Below are positions 36,001-39,000 of a stretch of 64,000 nt of DNA, in pieces. The stretch is taken from positions 12,354 through 76,353 of the forward strand of contig CAZYNM010000004.1 in the NCBI GenBank assembly GCA_964648715.1, written 5' to 3'. The stretch's first letter is position 1. The number at the start of each line of letters is the position of its first letter. This DNA comes from an uncultured Pseudomonadales bacterium. Lineage in GTDB: Bacteria > Patescibacteriota > Microgenomatia > UBA1400 > PJMF01. The position numbers are program-made.

Positions 36001-39000
36001 AAAAAAGAACTTTGGTTGAGATTTGTGATTCACCTCCTTAATATTGTTTCTGAATGCCCACTAGAACTTCCACAGAAACGAAAGCGTTTGGTTATCTCTA
36101 GCATACAGAATGGAATAACGGCGACATCTCTGAATTTATCGTGGCAGGCACGTTCAAATAGTAAGAGAGCACTCTTCCTTGTAATTAAATTAAGCAATCA
36201 GAAAAAAATTGGAATTCTTTGCGAGGTGCTTGGAAAGTATATTGAATCACAAGTTAATTCTAAACAAAACACTGCCTAACTTGGTCTATAACGGGGAGCC
36301 AAAAGACTATCTATTTCAATTCCTCATCCTTCTACCTAGTGTTACAATCTAGGTGATGTCAGACTTTGCACACTTTACATCTCTTATTGTTAATTTCAGA
36401 AATCAGAGAGACTGGAAGCAGTTTCATAAGCCAAAAGATTTGGCTATTTCATTAATGTTGGAAGCAGCTGAAGTAGCAGAACACTTTCAATGGCGTAACG
36501 ATGAAGAGTTGCGGACATACATTCAAACCCACAAAAAACAAATTGGAGAAGAACTTTCAGATGTATTGTATTGGGTGCTCTTAATGAGTCACGATTTAGA
36601 AATTGATTTGCCTAAAGCGCTCGAAGAAAAAATGTCCAGTAATCAGAAAAAATACCCGGTGGAAAAAGCCAAAGGAAAGCATACAAAATATACGGAACTG
36701 TAATATGCGTTTATATCAAGCTCACGTTTCTCAATTTATAGAAGATGTTCAGCTCAGCAAGATTGCCGATATTTTGGCTACTGCGTATCGGCATGCATAT
36801 AAAAGAGAAGTTTCTGAAGGAGAATACCGTTCATGGCATTATTCGCTACGGTTTATGAAAGATTCGCTTGATATAGTCAAGCTAGATGATTGTCATATTG
36901 TCTTGGAACACCAAATGCCATATACATCAAATCGCCTGGATATCATGTTATTTGGAAAAGACATAGAAGAAAAGGATTTTTCTGTTGTTGTGGAGCTTAA
37001 GCAATGGACAGAAATACAGCCATCCGATATTGATGGAAATATCTTAACTCCGATTGGAGGTGGATTACGAGAATGTGCTCATCCTTCATTACAAGTAGGT
37101 GGGTATGTCAGAGAGCTAGAAGATTCGTACCATGTCTTTGAAGATAAGCCACAACTTCATCTTTCTGGCACAGTATTTTGCCATAATTTGGACAGTCAAA
37201 GCAGTAGTGCACAAGTGTTATTTGCATCAGGACATAAACAGGTATTGATAAATCATCCAGTATATACCAAGTCTCAGATAAAGGAATTTGGCGAGTATTT
37301 GAGAGAAAGACTAGGTAAAGGAAATGGTACTTCAATTTTTGAAAGATTCGATCGTTCAAAAATTCAACCATCTAAACGCTTACTTAAAGAATTCAAGGGA
37401 ATGATATCAGGAAATACTATTTTTAATTTAATTGATGAACAAATTACAGCATTTAATGCGATCATGTCTAAGGTACGCCAAATTCAAAGTAGTAAACAGA
37501 AAAGTGTCATAATTATTGAAGGAGGACCAGGAACAGGAAAGTCAGTTATCGCTATTGAAGCAATGATTCAACTGATGCAACGTGGCCTCACTGTATTTCA
37601 TGCCACCGGCTCAGCATCTTTGACCAAAACATTTCAAAATCATGCAGGAAAACGTGCTGCAATGTTTTTTAAATTTTTCTATAGCTTTACTAAACATGAA
37701 GAAAACTCAATTGATGTACTGATTTGTGATGAAGCACACCGCTTACGAGAGCATAGTAATGATTGGGGTGTGCCATACATGTACAAATCAAAAAATCCAC
37801 AAATAGACGATATTATTCGACCTGGAAAAATCTCTATATTTTTTATTGATGAAAATCAAGTTGTTAGACCTACAGAAAAGGGAAGTGTAAAAATGATTGA
37901 GGATGCTGCGATAAAATTTGGTGCAAGCGTACATAAATATGAACTTAAAACACAGTTCAGATGTAGTGGCTCTGATGCATACTTGCAATGGTTGGATAAA
38001 GTTTTACATATTAGAGAATCAGACTTTAATGAATTTGATGCAAAAATGGAGTTCAAAATCTTTGACGATCCAAATGAAATGATGAAGCAAATCAAAATGA
38101 GAAATCAGGAGGTAACTAATTCAGCACGCATCGTGGCAGGATTCTGCTGGCCATGGAGTAAGCCAAATAAGGATGGCTCACTAGTAAATGATGTTGTAAT
38201 TGGAGACTTTGCCATGCCTTGGGAGCACAGAGAAGATTTCTGGCGGTGGGCTCATCACTCCATTGGAATGGAACAGGTGGGAACTGTGTATACAGCACAA
38301 GGCTTTGAGTTTGATTATATAGGAGTAATTTTTGGCAAAGATCTTGTTTGGGATAGAGCAAATAATGATTGGAAAGCACAACCAGAATATTCACAAGACA
38401 AAATGCTGAAGAGAAATAACCCAGAAGTTTTAAGACACTTAAAGAATATTTATAGAGTACTCTTATCAAGGGCTCATAAAGGTGTTTTCGTTTATTTTGA
38501 AGATAAGGAAACAGAGAAATACTTTAAGGAAAGACTTTCTCAATTTGAATGACTTAATTGTTTGCTTTAGTTCAAAAATCGTTCTATGATAGATCTATAT
38601 TGATCTGTCTGATGAACAAAAAATTTGTTGGTAGATTAGCAATTCTATTATCACTTTTTATAAGTTGTAATTTTATTTTTATAAATCAAGCTTCTGCTCG
38701 TTCTGGTTGCTGTTCTCACCATGGTGGTGTTTGCGGATGTGGATGTTGTGATGGTACATCACTTTCAAAAACATGTGCTCCATATTATCCGGAGTGCTCA
38801 GACGAAAACAGTATCCCAATTAAAAGTGCGCCACCTCGCCAGATAGTTTCTACGCCAAAACCAACTGTAAAACCCGCAGTGCGACCTACAGTCAAACCAA
38901 CGCTCAAGTCTACTCCAATCCCAGTGAAGTGTTCAGACATTTCTGATTCAATTTGCCCAAACAAATGTACTGCAGGTAATGATATTGACTGCTGTGGCAA

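Follow-up and report, generated by a model that had tools for sequence, protein, structure and literature searches.

A coupled MazG-like and nuclease-DUF2075 helicase gene pair as a candidate defence cassette in a Microgenomatia bacterium

Enzymes of the Nhi and AbiO type, which join a nuclease to a helicase of the DUF2075 kind, are already known. Nhi of Staphylococcus epidermidis (SERP2475) is a dimeric PD-(D/E)xK and DUF2075 enzyme that blocks the accumulation of phage DNA and displays exonuclease, nickase and bidirectional helicase activities (10.1101/776245); the Nhi-like protein of Millman et al. (2022) has the same architecture. AbiO of Lactococcus is predicted to carry a PD-(D/E)xK nuclease and a superfamily 1B (SF1B) helicase of the Schlafen group 3 type (PMC13064643). 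Published work on bacterial Schlafen defence concerns the RNase domain. On the nucleotide side, a MazG-like domain replaces the Calcineurin-CE effector that targets deoxynucleoside triphosphates (dNTPs) in rare PUA-HAD systems (10.64898/2026.01.15.699771, a 2026 preprint). DCTPP1 hydrolyses methylated and other C5-modified deoxycytidine triphosphates (dCTPs), excluding them from DNA (PMC13291643, PMC4491611); its pocket holds the cytosine sandwiched between Trp47 and Trp73, with His38 and His51 as selectivity filters (PMC13291643). The subject here is a pair of adjacent genes encoding a MazG-like, DCTPP1-type enzyme and a PD-(D/E)xK-DUF2075 helicase. The pair lies in 64,000 nucleotides (nt) of contig CAZYNM010000004.1 (assembly GCA_964648715.1, positions 12,354 to 76,353, forward strand) from an uncultured bacterium assigned by GTDB to the Microgenomatia; this whole stretch is referred to as the window, and positions are given within it. 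A literature search, with many subscription papers outside its scope, found no report of MazG together with DUF2075, Nhi, RadC or modification-dependent restriction, and the pair was not found described as such in the literature searched.

The two genes are interpreted as a two-gene module acting against phages or other mobile elements, a reading to which the analysis gives a probability of about 0.6. From their distribution in sequence databases they probably form a self-contained, horizontally mobile cassette. The pair is laid out as follows.

36356..36703, plus strand: MazG-like open reading frame (ORF), ATG at 36356, TAA at 36701-36703, 115 amino acids
36701..36707, plus strand: stop-start junction TAAtATG (TAA 36701-36703, one base, ATG 36705-36707)
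36705..38552, plus strand: nuclease-helicase ORF, 615 amino acids, TGA at 38550-38552

An in-frame GTG is found at 36353, upstream of the MazG-like ATG, and public gene calls record the 115-residue product from the ATG at 36356. The preceding ORF ends at 36279, leaving a gap of 73 nt before the pair. Stop-start coupling between TAA 36701-36703 and ATG 36705 had been proposed from the sequence alone (hereafter the sequence-only reading) and was confirmed. In other genomes the junction falls between -4 and +4 nt in 31 of 37 measurable cases, comprising 14 overlaps of 4 nt (ATGA-type), 2 overlaps of 1 nt and 15 gaps of 1-4 nt; tight coupling is therefore a trait of the family.

Linkage of the two genes was surveyed from both sides. 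On the helicase side, with one genome taken per species, the best 80 of at least 544 confirmed relatives were analysed, and these are spread over many bacterial phyla as well as Woesearchaeota, Micrarchaeota, Methanosarcinales, Thermoplasmata and Thaumarchaeota. A MazG-like gene is located within 6 kb of the helicase gene at 53 of the 80 loci, and at 41-43 of the 80 it stands immediately upstream on the same strand; in the other placements it is immediately downstream (3), adjacent on the opposite strand (3) or upstream with an intervening gene (4). With the family present about once per genome, fewer than one such locus would be expected by chance. The linkage extends across the whole helicase protein tree, which departs from taxonomy. 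In the first four contexts, represented by one relative at 78% identity, two at about 53% and one form bearing an S24 domain, the MazG-like gene is directly upstream of the helicase gene and all the remaining neighbours differ. On the MazG-like side, the 80 closest metagenomic relatives (39-68% identity) included about 67 with evaluable downstream sequence, 33 of which adjoin a DUF2075 gene. Six of these 33 DUF2075 neighbours have a GIY-YIG nuclease where the others have PD-(D/E)xK, and carry an S24 domain besides; the partnership therefore spans different nuclease types. The remaining MazG-like relatives precede genes for HNH or Vsr proteins, for a 368-residue protein with a PD-(D/E)xK-like C-terminus, or housekeeping genes.

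Gene linkage and junction are thus conserved, and the recurrence of the pair from either side supports the functional link that the sequence-only reading had supposed. The idea that two unrelated genes happen to abut in the window is refuted by the conservation of adjacency, order and junction in dozens of unrelated genomes. The pair was also rejected as a phage gene set: 2.9 million viral contigs hold only 2-3 full-length helicase copies. Both full-length viral copies that were checked keep the MazG-like gene upstream.

Some loci elsewhere depart from the simple two-gene layout. A RadC-like gene of the JAB-domain type recurs as a third cassette member placed before, between or after the pair (L003 4933-5646, L005 5287-5997, L015, L017, L021, L022 and L059). 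Two tandem DUF2075 genes occur in L018, L051, L067 and L180, the last being the Hymenobacter canadensis plasmid NZ_CP114769.1, where they adjoin a DNA methyltransferase gene and no MazG-like gene.

The small protein is by its sequence a true member of the MazG-like/DCTPP1 family. It matches the full 85-position profile of Pfam PF12643 (60.6 bits, cut-off 27; E 1.7e-16), and its best solved relatives in the PDB are mouse and human DCTPP1/RS21-C6 (E 6.6e-22, residues 10-115). DCTPP1 itself is a tetramer. In 18 partner proteins from other genomes the metal ligands E36, E39, E66 and D69 are invariant and E42 is nearly so; in RS21-C6 the corresponding segments are EVGELAE and EELSD. To map the cytosine pocket, DCTPP1 residues (PMC13291643) were transferred through the PDB alignment, which equates W47, W73, F41, F50, H51, D98 and Y129 of DCTPP1 with W20, W46, F14, F23, H24, D69 and Y100. 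Within the partner family W20, H24 and D69 do not vary, and F14 and Y100 hardly do. Given the conserved metal ligands and the mapped pocket, the small protein very probably has dNTP pyrophosphohydrolase activity, and its base pocket is probably of the cytosine type. PHROGs returned only a generic 'pyrophosphatase' match and NCBIfam nothing useful. A classical MazG linked to mazEF was ruled out, since MazE and MazF were not found among the window neighbours of the gene and the match to the classical MazG profile PF03819 is marginal (23.3 bits).

These properties bear on how the enzyme might be used. Nucleotide depletion, suggested by the sequence-only reading, survives as one option; the protein resembles a pool-sanitising dCTPase, not a regulated bulk dNTPase. 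In a bulk-depletion scheme, modelled on the dCTP deaminase, dGTPase and PUA-Calcineurin-HAD defences, the helicase would sense phage DNA and the MazG-like effector would drain canonical dCTP or dNTPs. Such a scheme would fit the invariant metal-binding residues and the substitution of a MazG-like domain for Calcineurin-CE in PUA-HAD systems (10.64898/2026.01.15.699771). The small protein is, however, a bare catalytic domain of 115 residues with no sensor or regulatory part, its closest characterised relatives sanitise the nucleotide pool, it matches no PADLOC model, and the conserved nuclease of its large partner would be redundant. Bulk depletion is consequently held to be quite improbable.

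The large protein consists of an N-terminal PD-(D/E)xK domain, a helical linker and a DUF2075/SLFN-g3 SF1B helicase. Residues 266-600 match Pfam PF09848 (SLFN-g3_helicase, formerly DUF2075) with E 2.9e-86. Its domain and motifs map to the following positions.

36705..37199, plus strand: PD-(D/E)xK nuclease domain, about residues 1-165
36906-36908, 36939-36941 and 36993-37001, plus strand: catalytic codons of E68, D79 and E97-L-K99, respectively, invariant
37521..37544, plus strand: Walker A GGPGTGKS, residues 273-280, invariant
37728..37739, plus strand: Walker B DEAH, residues 342-345, invariant (VLICDEAH, residues 338-345)

Across 76 homologues E68, D79, E97-x-K99, the Walker A motif and DEAH show no variation. 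The motifs quoted in the sequence-only reading (D79, E97-L-K99, GGPGTGKS and VLICDEAH) are therefore present and invariant, E68 is added to them, and the assignment of the two genes as MazG-like and DUF2075 is upheld by the Pfam matches (1.7e-16 and 2.9e-86) and by the invariant nuclease residues. An AlphaFold model of the whole protein has a predicted local distance difference test score (pLDDT) of 88 and a predicted template modelling score (pTM) of 0.84. The top Foldseek matches of this model are SF1B helicases, with RecD2 first (1.2e-11), followed by RecD, SLFN11, IGHMBP2, Dna2, Dda and Upf1; SLFN14 is also among the structural matches. When the N-terminal 240 residues are modelled alone (pLDDT 91), they form an alpha-beta-beta-beta-alpha-beta core whose strands 1-3 bear the conserved acidic and lysine residues, and the best fold matches are all PD-(D/E)xK nucleases: Can2, EcoO109I, BstEII, BsoBI, SfsA, Shedu and EndoMS. 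A Pfam scan found no Schlafen AlbA_2 RNase domain, and a classification of the protein as a Schlafen was rejected, as it lacks the RNase domain and has only the group 3 helicase. In PADLOC the protein matches PDC-S41 (9.7e-21), AbiO (7.1e-14) and Nhi (2.8e-12).

The helicase family is very large: a threshold of E<=1e-10 gives over 5,800 clusters of homologues. Typical relatives are 615-620 residues long and 50-55% identical over their full length. Many relatives, in a form of roughly 795 residues, add a C-terminal LexA-like Peptidase_S24 domain (e.g. P0027, P0040 and P0042), and at L090 4351-6351 a GIY-YIG-DUF2075-S24 variant is likewise encoded downstream of a MazG-like gene. The fusion to Peptidase_S24 hints at activation by self-cleavage, as in SOS-type regulators.

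Regulated activation, as the LexA-like domain of the long variants suggests, would also be a feature of a toxin-antidote or abortive infection mechanism. In that case the MazG-like enzyme would silence a toxic nuclease-helicase by hydrolysing a nucleotide, or a nucleotide signal, that the latter needs. The gene order, with the small gene first, and the translational coupling recall many antitoxin-toxin pairs; AbiO cloned on a high-copy vector is reportedly toxic (PMC13064643); and toxin-antitoxin genes are frequent among the neighbours. An essential antidote would not, however, be expected to be missing from a third of the helicase relatives; the partner appears from its sequence to be a conserved, active enzyme with a putative cytosine pocket, not a binding-only protein; and Nhi acts alone with no toxicity reported in its host. 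A toxin-antidote function is hence considered doubtful, and so is the trigger envisaged for it, in which infection, by altering the dNTP pool or through a phage product that inhibits the MazG-like enzyme, would free the nuclease and stop growth.

The region ahead of the MazG-like gene contains two elements of possible regulatory significance.

36340..36348, plus strand: extended -10 promoter-like element TGTTACAAT, ending 7 nt upstream of ATG 36356
36335..36353, plus strand: inverted repeat CCTAG-N9-CTAGG enclosing the -10 element, arms CCTAG 36335-36339 and CTAGG 36349-36353, read from the sequence

An mRNA initiated from the TGTTACAAT element is predicted to be leaderless. The element had been proposed at 36338-36346, 9 nt before the start codon; it is present, with the position and distance corrected to 36340-36348 and 7 nt. 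Its description as the only promoter-like element was too strong, as a consensus promoter scan reports weak -35/-10 matches near the pair, for example at 36016-36045 (+). The scan does not list the TGTTACAAT site because the site has no -35 element. At L001, a locus with 78% identity whose upstream genes differ, the spacing from TGCTACAAT to the MazG-like ATG is exactly 7 nt. The motif TGNTANAAT occurs 11 times in the window, where 16.8 matches would be expected, and so shows no enrichment; its informative aspect is position, not frequency: 4 of the 11 matches lie 6-7 nt upstream of the starts of long ORFs (36356, 40027, 42056 and 50563), the spacing being 6 nt at the last three. Many window ORFs have a TAnnnT box 5-9 nt upstream of the start codon and no Shine-Dalgarno sequence, and -10-only leaderless transcription would therefore be ordinary in this genome, where leaderless mRNAs appear from such boxes to be the norm. 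The closest named relatives of the ABC-F protein encoded in the window, at 66-71% identity, are Patescibacteria, and the host is therefore probably a bacterium of the candidate phyla radiation (CPR). A dedicated leaderless-type promoter for the pair is accordingly plausible, as proposed, in view of the geometry conserved at L001 and the TAnnnT boxes common in the window.

Starts preceded by a TAnnnT or TGnTAnAAT box include 1568, 7586-, 16548, 17244, 40027, 42056, 42552, 45273, 50563, 55010- and 61330- (a trailing hyphen marks the minus strand). The CCTAG/CTAGG repeat could be an operator or incidental; it is not conserved at L001. That locus has at 9643-9656 a perfect palindrome, CAGACATATGTCTG, centred on the MazG-like start codon, so that the two loci place different palindromes at the same control point, the start codon in one and the -10 element in the other.

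The promoter had been described as lying inside an operon, which is misleading, as the pair occurs elsewhere without the five genes that precede it here; because it travels without them, it is a unit of its own, and the possibility that it belongs to the five-gene block was rejected for the same reason. The stretch at 29829-36279 opens with a helix-turn-helix (HTH) gene resembling the control protein of restriction-modification (R-M) systems (29829-30038), followed by five tightly packed ORFs of 795, 603, 226, 242 and 213 amino acids. None of the five has a match in Pfam, PADLOC, NCBIfam or PHROGs. The 795-residue protein belongs to a conserved family (177 hits) without a known domain. A homologue with 53% identity to it stands alone at L181, where a type I R-M locus surrounds it and SLFN_AlbA_2, HipA and Zeta-toxin genes are its neighbours. 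The 795-residue protein is a candidate for an undescribed defence gene or system.

The wider surroundings of the pair in the window look like an integrated island. The GC content is 30-37% at about 26-39 kb, against 40-44% elsewhere in the window. A large serine recombinase gene at 25894-27534 (minus strand) opens this low-GC segment, and direct repeats of 180 nt (25790-25969 and 41797-41976, 95% identical) bracket roughly 15.8 kb containing it. Its cargo comprises the C-protein-like HTH gene, the five packed ORFs, the pair and a gene for a Cys-rich secreted protein. The last of these, at 38558-39181 directly 3' of the pair, encodes a protein that probably has a signal peptide, MNKKFVGRLAILLSLFISCNFIFINQASA, contains two copies of a Cys-rich segment (CTAGND[IF]DCC...) and has no family match. 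Scans of the window returned 0 Rfam families and 0 tRNA genes, so no RNA element and no tRNA integration site was detected in it.

A second pair of direct repeats (300 nt, 92% identity, 18606-18905 and 40869-41168) interleaves with the 180-nt pair. The interleaving suggests one or two accreted integrative islands with att-like flanks. Between the first copies of the two repeats (18606-18905 and 25790-25969) lies a cluster at 19889-24418 with D-Ala-D-Ala ligase-like, M15 D-Ala-D-Ala dipeptidase-like and two Peptidase_C39-like genes, which may be a second cargo block of the island region.

In other genomes the pair is found next to a HaeIII R-M system, AbiEii, an OLD-family nuclease, a HEPN/NTase pair, SocA_Panacea, SoFic and several PADLOC candidate systems. 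Four kinds of neighbour recur most: HNH_2 endonucleases, which account for 7 of the 131 flanking ORFs, RadC, Cas4-like PD-(D/E)xK proteins and PLD-helicase-DUF3427 proteins. The HNH half of the HNH_2 neighbours matches, at the same protein position, VcaM4I (7e-14), an EVE-HNH enzyme dependent on 5-methylcytosine or 5-hydroxymethylcytosine. That DUF3427 modification-dependent enzymes adjoin DUF2075 NTPases was noted previously by Lutz et al. (PMC6765204). With the recombinase-bearing low-GC island in the window and the defence genes beside the pair elsewhere, mobile or defence-like surroundings are supported, in agreement with the context that the sequence-only reading had assumed.

The neighbourhoods also bear on a housekeeping role, in which a Dna2/RecD-like nuclease-helicase would repair DNA and the NTPase would clear damaged dNTPs with no part in immunity. 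The fold is nearest to RecD2, RecD and Dna2, the MazG/DCTPP1 family is classically a housekeeping one, genes for the Vsr repair endonuclease or for metabolic functions adjoin some relatives, and the S24 fusion ties the family to the SOS response. Set against this are the patchy distribution across domains of life, a tree that departs from taxonomy, the position of the pair in a low-GC island with a recombinase, the recurrence of R-M, Abi and toxin-antitoxin neighbours, and the experimentally demonstrated anti-phage activity of Nhi and AbiO, which share the architecture. A purely housekeeping function is judged unlikely.

For an anti-phage or anti-mobile-element module, we infer a defence activity, its substrates and a cooperation of the two proteins along the following lines. 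Transcription would start at the cassette's own extended -10 promoter and yield a leaderless mRNA, and coupled translation would favour the production of both proteins from one message. The SF1B (DUF2075) helicase would be the motor that loads onto foreign or aberrant DNA, which the N-terminal PD-(D/E)xK nuclease would break down. The most likely role of the DCTPP1-type enzyme would be to destroy non-canonical, C5-modified dCTP-like nucleotides. Removal of such dNTPs might starve phages that build modified DNA; alternatively, the enzyme might block the salvage into the host chromosome of modified nucleotides freed by DNA degradation.

A more specific version, in which the cassette targets phages with modified cytosine or other modified pyrimidines, is put forward tentatively. 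The DCTPP1-like enzyme might conceivably destroy a phage-made dNTP (e.g. 5-hydroxymethyl-dCTP or 5-methyl-dCTP) or prevent modified nucleotides recovered by salvage from marking host DNA. In the same tentative picture the nuclease-helicase, often accompanied by type IV HNH or DUF3427 enzymes, would destroy the resulting or incoming DNA.

Several observations weigh against the defence interpretation or its modified-base version. Within 6 kb, 26 of the 80 helicase loci, among them a whole Chloroflexia clade, lack a MazG-like gene, which makes the partner dispensable or replaceable. Neighbours of another kind adjoin about half of the close MazG-like relatives, and these include housekeeping genes (PurU, classical MazG). 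The refutation that the sequence-only reading had allowed for, the two genes frequently occurring apart, is to this extent partly borne out. Among the top 150 MazG-like representatives and the top 120 DUF2075 hits, no fusion of MazG-like and DUF2075 domains was seen; that search turned up only tandem MazG-like duplications. Ordinary genes of metabolism or transport make up many of the neighbours of the pair. The PADLOC models of AbiO (residues 242-468) and Nhi (255-467) cover only the helicase core, and full-length homology of the large protein to Nhi or AbiO failed by these models; as the Nhi model is confined to the core, the 615-residue protein represents a different subfamily. The Foldseek matches of the isolated N-terminal domain are weak, the best being Can2 at E 0.013, and the MazG-like protein has no match among the PADLOC models. 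The selectivity residue His38 of DCTPP1 is Ile11 in the small protein. A Pfam scan for modified-base reader domains (SRA, EVE/PUA, DUF3427) found none in either window protein, and an EVE/PUA assignment of the N-terminal domains of the neighbouring HNH proteins failed, only their HNH halves being matched.

A very large, cross-domain branch of the nuclease-DUF2075 family thus usually travels with a coupled DCTPP1-type enzyme, and both parts of the pair have human counterparts, namely DCTPP1 and the helicase of the SLFN11 type. Should the pair prove to be a defence system, it would add a nucleotide-sanitising or nucleotide-denying component to DNA-targeting immunity and would suggest a testable link to phages with modified bases. 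The modified-base version, if true, would amount to a nucleotide-pool arm of modification-dependent restriction. Culturable carriers of the cassette include Parageobacillus caldoxylosilyticus NBRC 107762 (L034), Paraburkholderia (L063 and L066) and Pararobbsia alpina (L082).

Compared with the systems described so far, the pair combines familiar parts in its own way. Type IV modification-dependent restriction requires a reader domain, which neither window protein carries, and the modification-dependent enzymes (McaZI-type DUF3427 and VcaM4I) recur beside the pair in other genomes only. PUA-MazG-like-HAD systems share a MazG-like phosphoesterase predicted to act on nucleotide triphosphates within a conflict system; they contain PUA and HAD components and no DUF2075 helicase, whereas the MazG-like protein of the window is free-standing, at 115 residues. 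DCTPP1/RS21-C6 and the small protein share the all-alpha MazG-like fold family, the metal ligands, the two Trp residues of the cytosine sandwich, the equivalents of H51, D98 and Y129 and a C-terminal KYxxL tail. In contrast to DCTPP1, the small protein is prokaryotic, lacks an N-terminal extension, has Ile for His38 and is encoded by the first gene of a nuclease-helicase cassette. SLFN11 and the group III Schlafens have the same helicase domain, PF09848, but join it to an AlbA_2 RNase where the large protein has PD-(D/E)xK. PDC-S41, the best PADLOC match (9.7e-21), has a model length of 657, near that of the 615-residue protein; the match is partial, in two stretches with the best at residues 519-597, and PDC-S41 is a single-gene PADLOC candidate. 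AbiO is likewise a single gene for which no MazG-like partner has been described, and its match to the large protein is limited to residues 242-468. Nhi and the Nhi-like protein are similar to the large protein in uniting a nuclease and a DUF2075 SF1 helicase in one polypeptide of about 600 residues and in their defence contexts. Some members of the window family, unlike Nhi, add an S24 peptidase or exchange the nuclease for GIY-YIG, and whereas Nhi is encoded by a single gene, the family in the window is usually accompanied by a coupled MazG-like gene.

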